Virus record (IMG/VR): IMGVR_UViG_3300023174_007844 | Location: 16,399 to 80,398 of that record | Length of the DNA: 64,000 nucleotides | From: a virus | Reading direction: 5' to 3' (one strand) | Shown here: piece by piece, positions 3,104-54,430 of the stretch | Layout of the letters: the number at the start of each line of letters is the position of its first letter | Numbering within the stretch: the stretch's first letter is position 1 | The notes under the pieces: generated by a model | What the model saw: only the letters and a program-made list of their open reading frames with translations | Told to the model about the DNA's origin: nothing | The model's database searches: none | Program-made: the position numbers and the translations under genes

Positions 3104-3897
3104 CTTGCGTAAGGCAACCTTATAGTAATGCAATTTCGAAGTAAAGAATTCCAACCAGAACCTGTTGAAATATTCGCAGTTCCATAAGTCAACAAAAAGT
3201 ATGGTTTGCCAGAGTTTACCCTTGATTTTGCTAGTCTGTCTAAATTTTGAGGGAATTGAGGGTGAGTTTGTTTATATTGTTCAATTCCATCGATGACAAT
3301 AAAATCAAGACTCTTAAATTCTTCATTCATCTTGTCAAATTCATCTTTCTTATCAAAATCGCTTAAGACACTTATAATTTCAGTCCAATCATAGTACTTA
3401 GCAGACAAACCTTTTTTGATAGCAGATTGAACTAATACTGCACCGATAAAAGTTTTACCACTACCATTTTTACCATCAAAAATTAGTGATGTAAGTGGTG
3501 TCTTGATATTTCCAGTGTGACGAATAATTGGAGGATCGTTGTTTACAATATCCTTCATATATTTTTCAAAATGCTTAAGTAATACTAAAACTCGTTCACT
3601 GGTTTTAGATTCAACACCAAGATCTCTTCCATGAGAATCTGCACGAATATTCCAATCATCAAGACTTTTACCAATGAAAACTCTTGGTACATTAGCTTTA
3701 GCATAAAGTTCTTTGAGAAATTTTTCTTTCTCACATGAACACATTACAGATTTAGCTTTGTAATTAACAGTGTAGCCCCAATAATCACAAAGAGCGCAAC
3801 CGATACCTTTACTCATTCTAAGGTTTCGTGCACTATCTCGTAAGTTTTCTTTTAAATTATTTAGACCCAATATATCTTCAAAATTAGGTTCAGCCAT
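3100..3897 (-). CDS. DnaC/IstB-like helicase loader ATPase
   Basis: N-terminal CxxC...CxC, Walker A GKNGSGKT, Walker B IVIDG; adjacent to DnaB. Confidence 0.8.
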   Translation of the reverse strand: MAEPNFEDILGLNNLKENLRDSARNLRMSKGIGCALCDYWGYTVNYKAKSVMCSCEKEKFLKELYAKANVPRVFIGKSLDDWNIRADSHGRDLGVESKTSERVLVLLKHFEKYMKDIVNNDPPIIRHTGNIKTPLTSLIFDGKNGSGKTFIGAVLVQSAIKKGLSAKYYDWTEIISVLSDFDKKDEFDKMNEEFKSLDFIVIDGIEQYKQTHPQFPQNLDRLAKSRVNSGKPYFLLTYGTANISTGSGWNSLLRNCITIRLPYAR

Positions 3898-5501
3898 TAC
3901 AAATCATCCTCGTTCTCATTGTATCTCTTAATTTCAGAATTGCTACTGGAGGCATTTCTTGCTCTTTCACTAGCCCAAGATCTCAAGTATTGTATCTCTT
4001 CTTTCATCAATTTAGAAATGGGAACGGAATCTTTAATTGCGTCTACTATGTCTGATGTAATGATTTCTCTTTTGTTATCACTGAATGCTTCGTACAAAGC
4101 TGATTCAATGGCAGCTTCTATTTCCGCACCTGTGAAACTTTCAGATAAATCTGCCAATAATTCCAAATTAAAATTCTTTGGATTTCTGTTTCTTTTCTCA
4201 AGGTGGATTTTAAATATAGTTTTTCTTTCTAGCAGTTTAGGAAGATCTACAAAGAAAATCTCATCAAATCTACCTTTTCTCAATAATTCTGGTGGCAATG
4301 AAGAAACATCATTGGCAGTAGCAACAACAAATACTGGAGACTTTCTATCCTGCATCCAAGTGAGCCAAGAACCTAAGACTCTAGATGTAGTACCGCCATC
4401 TGTTGTACTTGATGCTCTTGATCCAGACATGCCCTTATCAATTTCATCACACCAAAGAATACAGGGAGCTACAGATTCAGCCACTTTAAAAACTTGTCTC
4501 ATATTTTGTTCAGAACTTCCAACAAGACCAGAAAATACTTTGCCCATGTCAAGTCTTAGAAGTGGGAAATTCCAAAATGATGAAATAGCTTTGGCGAATA
4601 ATGACTTACCAGCACCTTGAATGCCTACAAGTAAAATGCCTTTGGGATTTGCTGGCAATCCATAATCTAATGCCTCTAATGAAAAAGCATCTTTACGTTT
4701 TTCGAGCCAAGATTTTAATCCTGATAAACCACCAATACTATTCATATCAGTAGGGTCATCAATCCAATCCAATAAGCCTGATTTACGGATAATATCTTTC
4801 TTTTGTTGAATAATTGATTCAGGCAATAAGGATGTGTGTTTGATCATACAATAGGTACAAACTTGCTCACATTCTGATATTGTCAAACCTCTAAAACAAT
4901 TGACTACATTGTCAAGTTCTTCTTTGGTATATGATGTTTGAAATTTAGCAGCAAGATCAGGTCTTTTAGATGCTTTATCTAAAAGATATGTAATCTTTTC
5001 TGCTATTTCATCTTTACTTGGAAGAGGAAAATCAATTACAGGAACAGATTTTTCTAAATCTGTGGGAAGTTCTAGTGTGGATGAAAGAATAATTATTGCT
5101 TTGTTCTCTGTGGAAAAATCAAAGCTTAAGTTTTTCAATTGGCGGACAACTTTTATTTCTACTTGTCCACGATAGTTTCCAGAACCAAAAAATTTATTGT
5201 AATCTTTCAACACCAAGATACAAAATTTATTCTTTGGAACTATAAGTTTTTTAAACCAGCCTAATACTTCTTCTTGGTCCAAAACACAATCAGATGCTTT
5301 TGCTGGTAAGAATTCTGGAAATGTTGAATGAAGTCCAGAAACGATATCCCATTTTACGAGATCCCAAGAAGTATCAGCTTTGGAACATAAACTTTCCAAA
5401 GCTGACATTACTCTATTTTCTTCTTGAGATACTAAATATAAGACTGTTCTTTTAGATCTTATTAGCAGCTCAATTTCATCTATTGTTTGATTGCTGTCCA
5501 T
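3897..5501 (-). CDS. AAA+ ATPase (Ycf46/SpoVK-like)
   Basis: GIQGAGKS, LWCDEIDK, ATAN, PPELLRKGRFDEIFFVDLP. Confidence 0.9.
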   Translation of the reverse strand: MDSNQTIDEIELLIRSKRTVLYLVSQEENRVMSALESLCSKADTSWDLVKWDIVSGLHSTFPEFLPAKASDCVLDQEEVLGWFKKLIVPKNKFCILVLKDYNKFFGSGNYRGQVEIKVVRQLKNLSFDFSTENKAIIILSSTLELPTDLEKSVPVIDFPLPSKDEIAEKITYLLDKASKRPDLAAKFQTSYTKEELDNVVNCFRGLTISECEQVCTYCMIKHTSLLPESIIQQKKDIIRKSGLLDWIDDPTDMNSIGGLSGLKSWLEKRKDAFSLEALDYGLPANPKGILLVGIQGAGKSLFAKAISSFWNFPLLRLDMGKVFSGLVGSSEQNMRQVFKVAESVAPCILWCDEIDKGMSGSRASSTTDGGTTSRVLGSWLTWMQDRKSPVFVVATANDVSSLPPELLRKGRFDEIFFVDLPKLLERKTIFKIHLEKRNRNPKNFNLELLADLSESFTGAEIEAAIESALYEAFSDNKREIITSDIVDAIKDSVPISKLMKEEIQYLRSWASERARNASSSNSEIKRYNENEDDL

Positions 5502-8293: not shown

Positions 8294-9435
8294 GATAATC
8301 TCTGGCACACACAGAATCTTCCACAGGATTCACAGCTTTCAAAATTTTCTCTTGCGTAAATCTCCAAAGATTCAATTTCTATATCACATTCTTTGATAAT
8401 TTGATTTAGTTTTTTGATATCTTCTAATTTAGTATCAATATTTGAGTTTGTATTTTCAATATCAGAATCCAGCTTCTCCATAGTTAATAATTCAGTATGA
8501 ATGGAATCACAGTTTGAAATAAGTTGTCCTATATCACCTTCAGCAATTTCGTAATAATGATTGTAACTCTTTTCGGCAGTTTTATATTGAGTCACTTTAT
8601 TTGAAATATTTTCAATCAAAATAAGACCATCTGATATGTCATTATAATTTTTAGTCAACTCTGGAATAACTGAGCTATAAACTTCTTCAAGTGCTTCATA
8701 TTTGATTTTTTCATTTTTACAATCAACATATTGTTTGTAAGCTTTGTAAAAATCATCAACAAATTCTTCTAAAGTATCAATTTCAGACTCTAAATTTTCA
8801 TAATCTTGAATAAGATCTTTGAGTTTATTGAAATTTTCTATTCTTTCATCAAGATTTTCAAATGGCTTTAATTTTGTTTTAGTTGAGTCAAGTTCAGCAG
8901 ATACTCTTTTTATATCTGCTGAAATTTTATTAACTTCAGAATTAAGTAATGACCCTGCTTGTTCTAGATCATCTATTCTTAGAAGTTTTGAAATATCTTT
9001 TGGTATTGCTGTATCTGTAGAATTGATAAGAAATAATTTATCTTCTTGGTTAGCAAAAGGAACATAAGAATGAGCTGTTCTTGGTGTGTGTCCGATAAAT
9101 TCCACAACATCTTTTGGAAGATCAGAGCCAAATTTTGCGTGTTTGACAAGTTCTTTTCCAAAATACTGATACTCTACTTCATTGACAGTACCTTTGGTTC
9201 GCTTCAAATAGTCGCCATTCTTAAAAATGACAGTGATTTCGGTATTTTTTTGGCCATTTTTGACATCATATGACTTCCATTCATTCTCGAATACAAACAT
9301 AAATGCACGAAATAATGCTGACTTGCCACAGTCAGACGAACCTGTAATTACTGTCAAGCCAGATCCAAAAGTTAAAAAAGTATCTTCGTGATTTTGAAAA
9401 TTCTTTATACGAATGCTCTCTATATGCCTATTCAT
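8290..9435 (-). CDS. SbcC/Rad50-like ATPase, N-terminal half with Zn hook
   Basis: IKNFQNH, Walker A GSSDCGKS, long coiled coil, terminal CESC. Confidence 0.85.
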   Translation of the reverse strand: MNRHIESIRIKNFQNHEDTFLTFGSGLTVITGSSDCGKSALFRAFMFVFENEWKSYDVKNGQKNTEITVIFKNGDYLKRTKGTVNEVEYQYFGKELVKHAKFGSDLPKDVVEFIGHTPRTAHSYVPFANQEDKLFLINSTDTAIPKDISKLLRIDDLEQAGSLLNSEVNKISADIKRVSAELDSTKTKLKPFENLDERIENFNKLKDLIQDYENLESEIDTLEEFVDDFYKAYKQYVDCKNEKIKYEALEEVYSSVIPELTKNYNDISDGLILIENISNKVTQYKTAEKSYNHYYEIAEGDIGQLISNCDSIHTELLTMEKLDSDIENTNSNIDTKLEDIKKLNQIIKECDIEIESLEIYARENFESCESCGRFCVCQRLS

Positions 9436-38333: not shown

Positions 38334-38350
38334 GGTATAATCCTTGTGAT

Positions 38351-38423
38351 GGCCTGTTAGTCGAGTGGTTAAGATGCCTCCCTTTCACGGAGGAGACCAG
38401 GGGTTCGATACCCCTACAGGCTA
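38351..38423 (+). tRNA. tRNA-Glu(TTC)
   Basis: GGCCTGT/ACAGGCT, CCTCC-CTTTCAC-GGAGG, AGGGG-TTCGATA-CCCCT. Confidence 0.93.
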
Positions 38424-38447
38424 TTTGTGGTATAATGTATTTGTTGT

Positions 38448-38518
38448 TCTCTGGTGGTGTAACGGTAGCACAGAGGTTTTTGGTGCCTTTAGTTGGAGTT
38501 CGAATCTCTACCGGAGAA
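38448..38518 (+). tRNA. tRNA-Gln(TTG)
   Basis: TCTCTGG/CCGGAGA, GAGGT-TTTTGGT-GCCTT, TGGAG-TTCGAAT-CTCTA. Confidence 0.88.
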
Positions 38519-38523
38519 CCTTT

Positions 38524-38594
38524 GCTCCATTAGTATAAAGATAGTACGGATCTCTTGTAAAGATTGGGTAGGCGTTTGATTCGTCTATGGAGCT
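38524..38594 (+). tRNA. tRNA-Thr(TGT)
   Basis: GCTCCAT/ATGGAGC, GATCT-CTTGTAA-AGATT, AGGCG-TTTGATT-CGTCT (atypical T-loop). Confidence 0.8.
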
Positions 38595-38624
38595 CCTTTC
38601 CCTTTTTTGTGATATAATAAAGTT

Positions 38625-42254: not shown

Positions 42255-42327
42255 GCAACCGTAGCTCAGTGGATAGAGCAAATGCCTTCTAAGCATTTGG
42301 CCACAGGTTCGAGTCCTGTCGGTTGTA
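42255..42327 (+). tRNA. tRNA-Arg(TCT)
   Basis: GCAACCG/CGGTTGT, AATGC-CTTCTAA-GCATT, ACAGG-TTCGAGT-CCTGT. Confidence 0.95.
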
Positions 42328-52376: not shown

Positions 52377-52440
52377 GCATCCCAAAACACAAAAACAGGG
52401 GCTGCTTTTTCAAAGCCCCTGTTTTTGTGTTTTGGGATGC
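52377..52440. repeat. Perfect 27-bp inverted repeat (10-nt loop)
   Basis: GCATCCCAAAACACAAAAACAGGGGCT / AGCCCCTGTTTTTGTGTTTTGGGATGC. Confidence 0.9.
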
Positions 52441-52446
52441 TCCTAA

Positions 52447-52779
52447 CTACTTTTGAATACCATCAGGACGACCTTGCTTGCCACCACCCTGACCACGACC
52501 AGCAGAACCATCTACTCCGCCACGATCTACAGTTGGAAGAGTAGTCTTTGCCACAAGCTTCAATCCATCAACACTAAATTGATAAAGAGTGTTACCTGAA
52601 ATGACATAAACATAATTGCCAGAAGCAGCTACAGAAGAACCACCCCCAGCACGTCCACCACCTTGACCAGGACCAACCGGACGAGGAGCATCCTGACCTT
52701 GGAAGCCACCTGGAACCTGTGCAAAAACGACACCGAGAACAGCCAAAGAAGCTGCAAGAGAGACGAGCACTTTATTCAT
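52447..52779 (-). CDS. Small secreted Gly-rich protein
   Basis: Signal peptide ...VVFA-Q; VAASGNYVYVISGNTLYQF; higher GC. Confidence 0.75.
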   Translation of the reverse strand: MNKVLVSLAASLAVLGVVFAQVPGGFQGQDAPRPVGPGQGGGRAGGGSSVAASGNYVYVISGNTLYQFSVDGLKLVAKTTLPTVDRGGVDGSAGRGQGGGKQGRPDGIQK

Positions 52780-52918
52780 AATTTTTACCTCTGTTCAATA
52801 GACGAACAATAGTATTATATGTTCAATAAATGAGTGAAAGATTAAGATAGATCTTTTAGCAAACAGAAACAAAAAAAAGATCTACTTTCGTAGATCTTTT
52901 TTTCTAATTTGCTAAAAA

Positions 52919-53818
52919 TTAATTGCAGCCTTGATAATCACCAGTAGCCCAGAGACAAAGATCTCCTACTGCTTTCTTGTATTGAACAGCCTTAGCGTGT
53001 CCATCTACAAAAATACAGTTGACAGTACCAGTATGTCTAGCACCAATTTTATTCAATCCTGTTGCAGCGTCGAGAGTGCCACCAGATGCACTCCAGTTTG
53101 CGTTTCCAAGATTCTTCCAATAATACTTATATTGGCTACCTTGTGAATTTACATATGTTTGGATAGCAGCAATATCTGAAGTAGTAAATTTAGTAGTATC
53201 AAGTAAACCTGATTCATTCATTACATCTGGAACTACACCATAGTAAGAAGCATCAGATACAAGAATAATTCCAGCAGGTCTGGAAACGCTAGCTGCTGCA
53301 ACACTTTGTGGATTACCACTAGCATCAGCGAATGAACCAGCAGGACTCATCCAAGCATCATTATGTCCATATGAGTTTTGTCCACCATAGTTTGTTCCCA
53401 ATGCTCCTGGTGCATTGAAATTGATCTTTGCTTTATCTCCTGGTGCAAAAGCAGTTGGATTGCTAGGACACTTGAATAAAGTATAGTTCTTTACATATGG
53501 TTGAAGTAAGTGTACCCAGTAATAACGCATAGAAGAATTTGCATCGTAAGCACTAGCAGCTGGATCTCCTACATACTGAGGACAAACCTGAAATGCGCCA
53601 GAAGCATCACGGCAGTTGAAACGGTGTGGGTAATAGTTCTCATCATAGTCTTGGACATACATCATAGTAGATGTACCAATCTGTTTCATATTAGATAAGC
53701 AGGATGCAGAACGAGCCTTATCACGAGCCTGGGCAAAAACAGGGAAGAGAATTGCAGCCAAAATAGCGATGATTGCAATGACAACGAGGAGTTCAATAAG
53801 AGTAAACGCTTTTTTCAT
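52919..53818 (-). CDS. Prepilin-type N-terminal cleavage/methylation protein, DUF1559 / H-X9-DG family
   Basis: [36 protein letters not shown]...CLSN.KQ; C-terminal [16 protein letters not shown]. Confidence 0.93.
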
Positions 53819-53941
53819 TTTTTAGTTTCCTTTTAGAAATCTGTAATTATTATTCCACTAAATAAGTAAAGATATATTAAGAGAAATAAATAATTTCTTA
53901 ATAAAAAGGAGCGCATATCCTAAACTCTCTATAATAAAAAT

Positions 53942-54430
53942 ATGAAATACAAAATTACAATAAAAGGCGCAAAAGAACAGAAGTATCTTTTCCTAGATAT
54001 AGATGGAGTGATGAATTCTTTCAATGATTACAATGTGACAGGCGAAGAATTCCTAGATAAAATAAATGATATATCTTTTGTAATTAGTAAGAAACAAATA
54101 GATCTTTTAAACCAAATAATAGAAAAATATAATCCTAAAATAGTGCTGTCTTCCTATTGGCGCACAAGATATCCAATAGAAAAAATAAATAAGATATTTA
54201 AAGAAAATGGATCGAAATGCGCAGTGATAGCAAAGACAGATGAAAAAGGCGAAGAACACAAAGACAGATGGGAACAAATAAAAAGATTTATAGATAAAAA
54301 CAACATAGAAAACTATATAATATTAGATGATGATAGTTTGGGCAATAAAGCCAAAAATCATATCAAAACAGATCCATACAAAGGTTTAGAAAAAGAACAT
54401 ATAGACAGAATAAAAAAGATATGGAAATAA
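53942..54430 (+). CDS. HAD phosphatase (Swiss-Army-Knife RNA-repair-like HAD)
   Basis: FLDIDGVMN, IVLSSYWR, YIILDD, GL. Confidence 0.8.
   Translation: MKYKITIKGAKEQKYLFLDIDGVMNSFNDYNVTGEEFLDKINDISFVISKKQIDLLNQIIEKYNPKIVLSSYWRTRYPIEKINKIFKENGSKCAVIAKTDEKGEEHKDRWEQIKRFIDKNNIENYIILDDDSLGNKAKNHIKTDPYKGLEKEHIDRIKKIWK

Follow-up and report, generated by a model that had tools for sequence, protein, structure and literature searches.

We describe here a gene for a prepilin-like DUF1559 protein, which lies in a 64,000-nucleotide stretch of viral DNA (hereafter the window; bases 16399-80398 of IMG/VR record IMGVR_UViG_3300023174_007844, here G000:C1, of 80,398 bases in total). The reading that we prefer, with a probability of about 0.5, is that this is a host-derived envelope gene of the phosphate-stress response, which was captured with part of the host promoter and is switched by the Pho system of the infected host. 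The contig itself is a fragment of an AT-rich freshwater jumbo phage. It was classified as viral by both IMG/VR and CheckV, its GC content is 32.6%, and a CheckV completeness of 22% implies a genome of about 350 kb.

The predicted product (Table 1) appears to be an envelope protein of the kind of type IV pilins and the pseudopilins of the type II secretion system (T2SS), with a class III signal, a hydrophobic assembly helix and a globular domain that ends in H-X9-DG. In Pfam the protein matched N_methyl PF07963 over residues 2-25 (30.2 bits, cut-off 21.2) and DUF1559/SBP_bac_10 PF07596 over residues 30-279 of 299 (45.3 bits, gathering score 23.3); in NCBIfam it matched TIGR02532 (31.5 bits, cut-off 16.3) and the H-X9-DG domain TIGR04294 over residues 259-278 (21.6 bits, cut-off 19). 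An initial annotation, made from the letters of the DNA alone, had reported an intact class III signal and a C-terminal H-X9-DG; the strings that it quoted are present and, as the scores show, the families lie above their cut-offs. The cleavage after Phe implied by a hyphen in that annotation does not agree with the usual prepilin rule, which we take to apply here and which puts the cut between Ala-4 and Phe-5, with Phe at +1 and Glu at +5.

The phage protein has kept all 75 columns that are invariant in an alignment of 30 homologues, including four conserved cysteines, and its N-terminal assembly helix is identical to that of host paralogues. In comparisons with the other phage copies the ratio of nonsynonymous to synonymous substitution rates (dN/dS) was 0.05-0.12, at dS values from 0.17 to about 1.9. 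The low dN/dS and the intact invariant columns argue that the gene is functional in the phages, where it appears to be kept under strong purifying selection. There is only one prepilin-type gene per phage record. Peptidase_A24 was not found in the phage records G000, G405 and the 88%-complete G406, and it is present in the bacterial genomes G207 and G096; because the phage records encode no prepilin peptidase, the class III signal would have to be cut by that of the host. As a separate observation, contig G096:C89 carries a prepilin peptidase gene (2564-2851) about 5.5 kb from a DUF1559 gene (8339-9301) orthologous to the type-B phage allele described below.

The AlphaFold (AF2) model had a predicted local distance difference test (pLDDT) value of 82 and a predicted template modelling (pTM) score of 0.81. 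Foldseek found no match in the PDB at E <=0.001 (E above 0.4), aligning the N-terminal helix alone, and in the PDB sequence search, too, only this helix was matched, with profile E values of 1e-8 to 1e-12 to pilin N-termini. An exhaustive structural scan (VIA-align) gave top matches that were mostly type IV pilins and pseudopilins and spanned the whole model (Z <=4.4), among them PilA4 of Thermus (6xxd), EpsG (4lw9), PulG (5wda) and minor pilins. Judged from the model, a pilin-like fold with large insertions is plausible. To our knowledge, DUF1559 proteins have never been shown to form a fibre. In Planctopirus limnophila no other paralogue group is as large as DUF1559, two members of which are essential (PMC10632474), and in Rhodopirellula the family was found to be stress-responsive (PMC2754498).

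Cellular origin and upstream repeats

A search of 5.8 billion proteins returned three close clusters, at 94, 86 and 82% identity, and all other matches were at or below 69%; those of the latter that bear a taxon name are nearly all from Armatimonadota (Armatimonas sp., Capsulimonadales, Chthonomonadaceae). Among 401 sampled Armatimonadota genomes 45 had a match at E <=1e-85, the best being that in G207 (82%), followed by G400 (70%), whose copy is identical to an NCBI protein of 'Armatimonas sp.'. At E <=1e-20 there were 36, 21 and 86 matching paralogues in three Armatimonadota metagenome-assembled genomes (MAGs) and none in a Pirellulales and a Limisphaerales genome. A profile search of genome contigs, which used the N-terminal pilin patterns alone, gave unspecific paralogues from four phyla. 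In phylogenetic trees all copies from AT-rich phages and the G207 copy formed one clade with full support (100/100), nested within cellular Armatimonadota sequences. The closest cellular genomes (G207, G400, G305, G084 and G144) all belong to one GTDB family, which comprises 32 genomes including G001, titled Armatimonas sp. by NCBI.

By its composition the G207 copy is cellular: its GC content at third codon positions (GC3) is 0.54 and the GC content of its flanks 0.50, like other G207 contigs. With the copy of phage G406 it shares 90% identity. In the unconstrained tree it fell among the phage copies with weak support (88/44), and the approximately unbiased (AU) test did not reject monophyly of the phage copies (p 0.53). 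A single capture from a G207-like lineage would be enough to account for these data, and several captures are possible. The codons of the phage gene fit such an origin. GC3 is 0.25 in the window gene, 0.21 in the phage open reading frames (ORFs) and 0.24-0.37 in the phage copies, as compared with 0.52-0.94 in the cellular orthologues, so that the proposal of a captured gene rewritten in AT-richer codons is borne out. The Gln codons CAA:CAG stand at 9:4 in the window gene, 2:10 in G207 and 0:22 in G400. Of the Arg codons in the window gene, five out of seven are CGT, although the phage genes use AGA about two-thirds of the time; these CGT codons are probably a remnant of a source that used CGN.

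The gene was thus first described, correctly as it now appears, as phage-borne and host-derived, its nearest relatives lying in Armatimonadota, in the GTDB family with the Armatimonas MAGs. The notion that its signal motif is typical of the phylum needs to be narrowed. In the five genomes sampled the exact motif occurs 20 times in an Armatimonas MAG and 31 times in a Capsulimonas MAG, and not at all in one Fimbriimonas, one Pirellulales and one Limisphaerales genome, which agrees with the class Armatimonadia and not with the phylum as a whole. Taken together, capture of the gene from Armatimonadaceae seems to us very probable.

The upstream DNA points in the same direction and suggests, in addition, how the gene might be regulated. 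When nine phage loci were aligned, only two upstream blocks were conserved, CTTAAYAT and, 17-19 nt downstream, the -10-like element GGAATAATA. Both blocks are kept whatever the allele or the neighbour, and the remaining upstream DNA is unalignable. Two TTAAY repeats with an 11-nt period are present in L003, L128, L229 and L232, and only one intact repeat in L230, L231, L233 and the window, where it reads CTTAATAT. The composite CTTAAYAT-N16-20-GGAATAAT is found a single time in the 80-kb genome (0.0 expected from shuffles), and the sole YTTAAY-N5-YTTAAY in the 316 kb of G406, where shuffles gave an expectation of 6.1, stands just upstream of its DUF1559 gene.

In the cellular orthologues of the window allele (type A) there are two to four CTTAAY repeats, spaced by exactly 11 nt. 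A correctly spaced pair was found within 300 nt upstream in 30 of 37 cellular orthologue loci, as compared with one of 37 for the reversed pattern; elsewhere in these loci there were eight spaced pairs in 416 kb. Genome-wide, CTTAAY-N5-CTTAAY is rare, with 1-29 matches in five Armatimonadota genomes (3.4-6.6 Mb) against 0-5 for the reversed control. The double repeat is found upstream of pstS in G135, G215 and G027, and a 9-bp-spaced variant precedes pstS in G214. It also precedes genes for an SLH/phosphate-selective porin (Porin_O_P), PP_kinase (ppk), PhoU_div, an alginate-export-type porin and phosphoketolase, and several DUF1559 paralogues. Since the same motif stands before pstS, the phosphate porin, ppk and phoU-like genes, we regard it as a Pho box. 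The CTTAAY double repeat is built like a PhoB operator and fits the cyanobacterial Pho-box consensus PyTTAAPyPy(T/A), through which cyanophage genes are controlled by the host PhoBR (PMC10976474). Judged by the motif, the host type-A paralogue would belong to the Pho regulon, and Pho-dependent expression of the phage gene is, in our estimation, just on the likely side.

Two further observations on this motif were made in the cellular genomes. In the complete genome G215 (G215:C1:3053753-3077384; L269-L274, L279) two tandem DUF1559 paralogues, each with three or four repeats, lie about 6 kb from pstS, and another cluster of repeats is 23 kb away from that gene. In the genomes examined a large share of the triple-repeat sites belongs to DUF1559 genes. 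Contigs from the RNA-library run X18 covered window positions 52422-52892 and 53248-53493 and none fell on the flanking HAD gene; we did not count them as evidence of transcription.

Exchange of alleles at the locus

Scanning IMG/VR with the representative of the 82% cluster (P0003) yielded six further contigs of 30-358 kb (GC about 0.31), which share many genes with the window phage and carry DUF1559 genes about 35% identical to that of the window. A broader scan of metagenome contigs added, among the matches listed, L128 and L138. The alleles fall into three types: type A, that of the window, is present in three IMG/VR contigs, type B (322 aa) in at least 11 and type C (298 aa) in one. In L231 and L233 a type-B gene lies between the same HAD and 1004-aa genes that flank the window gene. 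The DNA of the window is 82-87% identical to that of the type-B phages from the HAD gene across the intergenic DNA to about nucleotide 180 of the pilin gene. Identity stops at ~53638, there is none across the gene body, and it resumes at ~52443, at the downstream hairpin, with 92-95%. In independent runs contigs have loose ends at 52432 and 52443, and the variable block corresponds to about 52443-53637 of the window. As identity is kept over the segment coding for the signal and the helix and is lost beyond it, this segment is one anchor of the exchange. DUF1559 alleles are thus swapped among related phages at a fixed locus, by recombination anchored in the 5' end of the pilin gene. Type B, too, derives from these bacteria, the protein being 78% identical to that of an Armatimonadaceae MAG and 73% to that of Armatimonas sp.

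The exchange of 5' modules may already occur among paralogues in the hosts: the type-A gene of G207:C396 (L095) and the type-B gene of G411:C298 (L333) have the leader MNAIRSHRNAF in common and similar 5' untranslated regions (UTRs; upstream 120 nt), and their globular domains are about 35% identical. A 308-aa DUF1559 gene resembling type C was seen in L228 (IMGVR_UViG_3300012041_000023; 70 kb, GC 0.66), which has no other genes in common with these phages; this contig is perhaps a provirus, or else a piece of cellular DNA from a high-GC member of Armatimonadota.

The variable block of the window contains a second, optional gene, whose 110-aa product has a signal peptide, two Gly-rich stretches and a conserved beta-rich core, and had no match in Pfam or NCBIfam. 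In L002, whose DUF1559 protein is 96% identical to that of the window, ~390 bp including this ORF are replaced by ~90 unrelated bp. L230 has a homologue downstream of its DUF1559 gene, and the DNA similarity to L128 runs through the ORF. The protein has 199 small unnamed metagenomic homologues; in the 401 Armatimonadota genomes there were only weak partial matches, none of which adjoins a pilin gene. The idea that the 110-aa gene was captured from the host along with the pilin gene was dropped, since these matches are weak, partial and away from pilin genes.

Possible roles of the phage protein

The preferred reading can be put as a sequence of steps. AT-rich freshwater jumbo phages would have captured the gene, as a moron or auxiliary gene, from Armatimonadaceae hosts with part of its promoter. 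The host prepilin peptidase would cut the signal and the host machinery would assemble the phage protein. When the infected cell is starved of phosphate, the PhoB-type regulator of the host would switch on the phage copy, which would sustain or boost a pilin-based envelope function for phosphorus supply while the ~350-kb genome is replicated. The Pho logic is attractive because a genome of this size has a heavy demand for phosphorus. The role in phosphorus supply is suggested by regulon membership alone and we regard this part of the reading as tentative.

Several observations weigh against this reading. No function is known from the literature for any DUF1559 protein, so that 'phosphorus supply' follows only from the presumed regulon. 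The window promoter has a single intact repeat, the distance between the repeats and the -10-like element is greater in the phages than in the hosts by about one helical turn, and GGAATAATA could be an element of phage type, in which case transcription may be independent of phosphate. It must be noted that predicted Pho boxes in phage genomes often fail experimentally and are unreliable predictors (PMC10976474). The nearest cellular copy (G207:C396) is on a 2.3-kb binned contig and adjoins an IS3 element; the IS3 transposase has no close second copy in that MAG, and the contig is not anchored to the genome by it. The distance in GC content between the phage (32.6%) and the proposed hosts (~50-57%) is unusually large. 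Finally, no CRISPR-spacer-like match was among the matches listed between window 1-60000, the part of the record that was searched, and the 32 genomes of the G207 family, those listed being to a conserved ATPase, the tRNA and the DUF1559 5' end; we do not consider this as evidence against the host assignment.

The main rival explanation is that the phage protein remodels the cell surface for superinfection exclusion or receptor masking, either by poisoning pilus assembly or by altering the fibre surface so that competing phages, or progeny virions, no longer adsorb. Co-assembly is plausible, as the N-terminal helix is identical to that of the host paralogues. At least three alternative globular domains have been exchanged among related phages, a pattern common in arms-race genes, and in PHROGs the category of phage pilins is moron / host takeover. 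Blocking of type IV pili by phages is known, for instance by Tip of D3112 and Aqs1 of DMS3, but we know of no pilus-targeting protein that is a full pilin copy. The alleles, moreover, are near-orthologues of normal host genes (82-90% and 83%) under strong purifying selection. All invariant residues are kept with no sign of a dominant-negative change, and the phages have retained a host Pho-type operator that exclusion does not need. We therefore consider exclusion unlikely, although it is the strongest of the competitors. Of the functions suggested initially, nutrient capture gains from the Pho-box-type operator common with the host pstS, and the jamming of pilus or T2SS assembly found no direct support.

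A bolder form of the phosphate-stress reading, which we offer as speculation and consider improbable, is that DUF1559 proteins in general are subunits of a pilin-based nutrient-scavenging apparatus, one branch of which serves in phosphate starvation. The phage alleles would then be an exchangeable cassette that recombines, through the pilin 5' end, with host paralogues and other phages and re-equips the infected cell with the fibre subunit that suits the phosphorus source or the host lineage found locally.

That the gene is a cargo from the host with a benefit that has nothing to do with phosphate, such as the capture of sugars or peptides, and that the TTAA repeats are a decaying relic of the captured promoter, appears still less probable. 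Such decay would account for the single intact repeat in the window, L230, L231 and L233. Against it, CTTAAYAT is one of the only two blocks conserved across phage loci whose upstream DNA is otherwise unalignable, and the one double repeat of G406 stands at the DUF1559 gene and nowhere else in 316 kb; both facts argue for selection on the motif.

Host, phage record and relation to known systems

The tRNA genes of the phage offer independent information on the host. ARAGORN found four (Glu-TTC, Gln-TTG, Thr-TGT and Arg-TCT, at 38350-38596 and 42255-42327). The tRNA-Gln is identical, in 64 of 64 positions, to that of G096, G410 and G411, and 98-99% identical to those of G380, G365 and G395. At E <=1e-8 it matched 13 of the 401 Armatimonadota genomes, with no more than 85% identity outside these six. 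In the other genomes searched, Fimbriimonas and Pirellulales gave nothing, Limisphaerales a 19-nt match and Capsulimonas 75%. The tRNA-Glu is 96% identical to that of G084 and 89% to those of many genomes of the same family. The segment Glu-spacer-Gln is 95% identical to the short contig G365:C347. The best cellular matches to the type-B allele, at 80-83%, are in the small-genome subclade with G096, G365, G411, G413 and G395. The two DUF1559 alleles and the tRNA-Gln thus converge on one Armatimonadaceae subclade, which we propose as the likely host. Matching of tRNAs, one of the checks proposed with the initial annotation, was informative in that identity of the tRNA-Gln is restricted to this small-genome subclade.

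All four phage tRNAs read A-ending codons, which the phage uses heavily (GAA 783 against GAG 118; AGA in 375 of 549 Arg codons) and which the host orthologues seldom use, in keeping with codon compensation across the 20-25 point GC gap between phage and host. Contig G365:C347 (L290, 1-919; 919 bp) contains the tRNAs Asn-Glu-Gln-Thr-Ala followed by an apparent 5' end of a 23S rRNA gene, in an order that matches the phage cluster; it is either a host tRNA cluster copied by the phage or a mis-binned fragment.

That the host is not a member of Armatimonadota, the gene and tRNA having arrived by indirect transfer or the cellular matches being phage contigs mis-binned in MAGs, seems quite improbable to us. 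The GC gap and the shortness of G207:C396, G365:C347 and G395:C55 would agree with it. The identical tRNA-Gln genes of G096, G410 and G411, however, lie in 3-kb stretches of GC 0.55-0.57, and in the G207 copy both GC3 (0.54) and leader (MNAIRSHRNAF) are of host type, its 5' UTR resembling those of the type-B genes of G411, G096 and G365. The agreement of two alleles and a tRNA on a single subclade is a further argument against it.

The phage nature of the record is also apparent from its genes, which include those for a DnaB-type helicase, an SbcC-like exonuclease and a tail-like protein (PHROGs) in the window. The 315,852-base relative G406 (88% complete), whose DUF1559 gene is 86% identical, encodes a phage DNA polymerase (phrog_405, E 1e-243), topoisomerase II subunits, helicases and a head-protease-like protein. 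In our own annotation no capsid or terminase gene was identified. In the window and in L002, which comes from another metagenome, the neighbours of the DUF1559 gene are the same, an HAD_SAK_2 gene upstream and a gene for a 1003/1004-aa protein downstream. HAD_SAK_2 is a domain described from RNA-repair 'Swiss Army Knife' proteins. Within ORF 3897-5501 (AAA ATPase, phrog_8638), window 4221-4664 has matches in 17 of the 32 Armatimonadaceae genomes (64-75% nucleotide identity); this may reflect a conserved ATPase core, or else a second gene related to the hosts.

An assembly chimera, or contamination of a viral contig by cellular DNA, can practically be dismissed: the gene is 8-10 GC points above its flanks, but with a phage-like GC3 of 0.25 this excess stems from amino-acid composition, and the same junctions recur in contigs of other metagenomes and of independent lake-water runs. 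The chimeric join that was to be checked according to the initial annotation is refuted by the alignment of the window with L002, near-perfect across both gene junctions, and by contigs from three other lake-water runs (X2, X3 and X4; different samples and studies), which bridge 53685-54105, from the 5' end of the gene into the HAD gene, with zero differences in two of the three. Members of the exact-sequence cluster of the gene are also present on further contigs of up to 162 kb.

Table 1. Features of the window discussed in the text
Feature	Position	Strand	Basis
DUF1559 / H-X9-DG prepilin-type gene, allele type A, 299 aa, open frame	52919..53818	-	
Class III (prepilin) signal and N-terminal hydrophobic helix, residues 1-25; left anchor of allele exchange	53744..53818	-	N_methyl, TIGR02532
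C-terminal H-X9-DG region, residues 259-278	52985..53044	-	TIGR04294
Terminator of the DUF1559 gene, hairpin and T-run, conserved in L002	52871..52904	-	
-10-like element GGAATAATA, conserved in all related phages	53848..53856	-	
One intact Pho-box-type repeat upstream of the gene, CTTAATAT; degenerate copies 11 nt either side	53874..53881	-	
Gene for a 110-aa secreted Gly-rich protein, optional second cassette gene	52447..52779	-	ORF
Second hairpin terminator, right boundary of the variable cassette	52384..52432	-	conserved palindrome in window/L002 alignment
HAD_SAK_2 domain protein (E 8e-27), conserved upstream neighbour of the DUF1559 gene	53942-54430	+	
tRNA-Glu(TTC)	38350..38424	+	ARAGORN
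tRNA-Gln(TTG)	38448..38520	+	ARAGORN

A phage that carries a Pho-regulon gene of its host with the operator is an already known kind of system. New here are the pilin-like DUF1559 cargo, Armatimonadota as the host phylum and the exchange through the pilin 5' end; the membership of several DUF1559 paralogues in the Pho regulon, which the upstream motifs suggest, would also be new. We found no paper that describes a phage DUF1559 gene with a Pho operator, and none that characterises phages of Armatimonadota. A tblastn search of 50,697 GenBank phage records with the phage protein gave no match, but the low-complexity filter may hide matches confined to the helix.

The results tie an abundant uncultured clade of freshwater jumbo phages, with contigs of up to 358 kb from many lake metagenomes, to what is probably a specific uncultured subclade of Armatimonadaceae. 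They give DUF1559, a family of 'unknown function' in the literature, a testable regulatory context, several paralogues standing behind the same operator as pstS. The phage capture of Pho-regulon genes known from marine cyanophages may reach a further phylum and habitat and a cargo of envelope or pilin-like kind, and the locus is a case of auxiliary-gene alleles swapped by recombination inside a conserved segment coding for signal peptide and helix. If the speculation on a nutrient-scavenging cassette were true, it would open a first way into the function of a family whose paralogues number tens to hundreds in a genome, and the locus would represent a new kind of modular auxiliary-gene locus.

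It is instructive to compare the phage gene with its relatives and with known systems. With the DUF1559 proteins of Armatimonadaceae the product shares the three-part architecture and the invariant residues (identity 82% to G207, 68-70% to Armatimonas sp.), and the genes share the Pho-box-type repeat upstream. The phage copy differs from these orthologues in its short leader (MKKA instead of MNAIRSHRNA), its AT-rich third codon positions and its place in a 32.6%-GC jumbo phage genome, at a locus where related phages have other paralogues; it has one intact operator repeat, a phage-type -10-like element and a terminator of its own. The class III signal, Glu +5 and the long N-terminal helix are as in type IV pilins and T2SS major pseudopilins, whereas the globular part is about twice as large and matches no known structure significantly, and the C-terminus is of the H-X9-DG kind. 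Tip and Aqs1 are likewise products of phage genes that act on the pilus system of the host, but they are small binders of the PilB ATPase and not pilin homologues, unlike the pilin-like phage DUF1559 protein; no sequence relation to them came up in this analysis, in which no search was aimed at one. Another parallel is with the cyanophage pstS and phoA genes under the control of the host PhoBR, of which the pstS of P-SSM2 is cited as a P-responsive cyanophage gene in a passage of PMC10976474. In both cases a host-derived Pho-regulon gene would be carried by a large phage of lytic type with a host-type operator (PyTTAAPyPyW repeats, 11-bp period). Here the cargo is pilin-like rather than a phosphate-binding protein or phosphatase, the host belongs to Armatimonadota, the alleles are exchangeable and the regulation is predicted.

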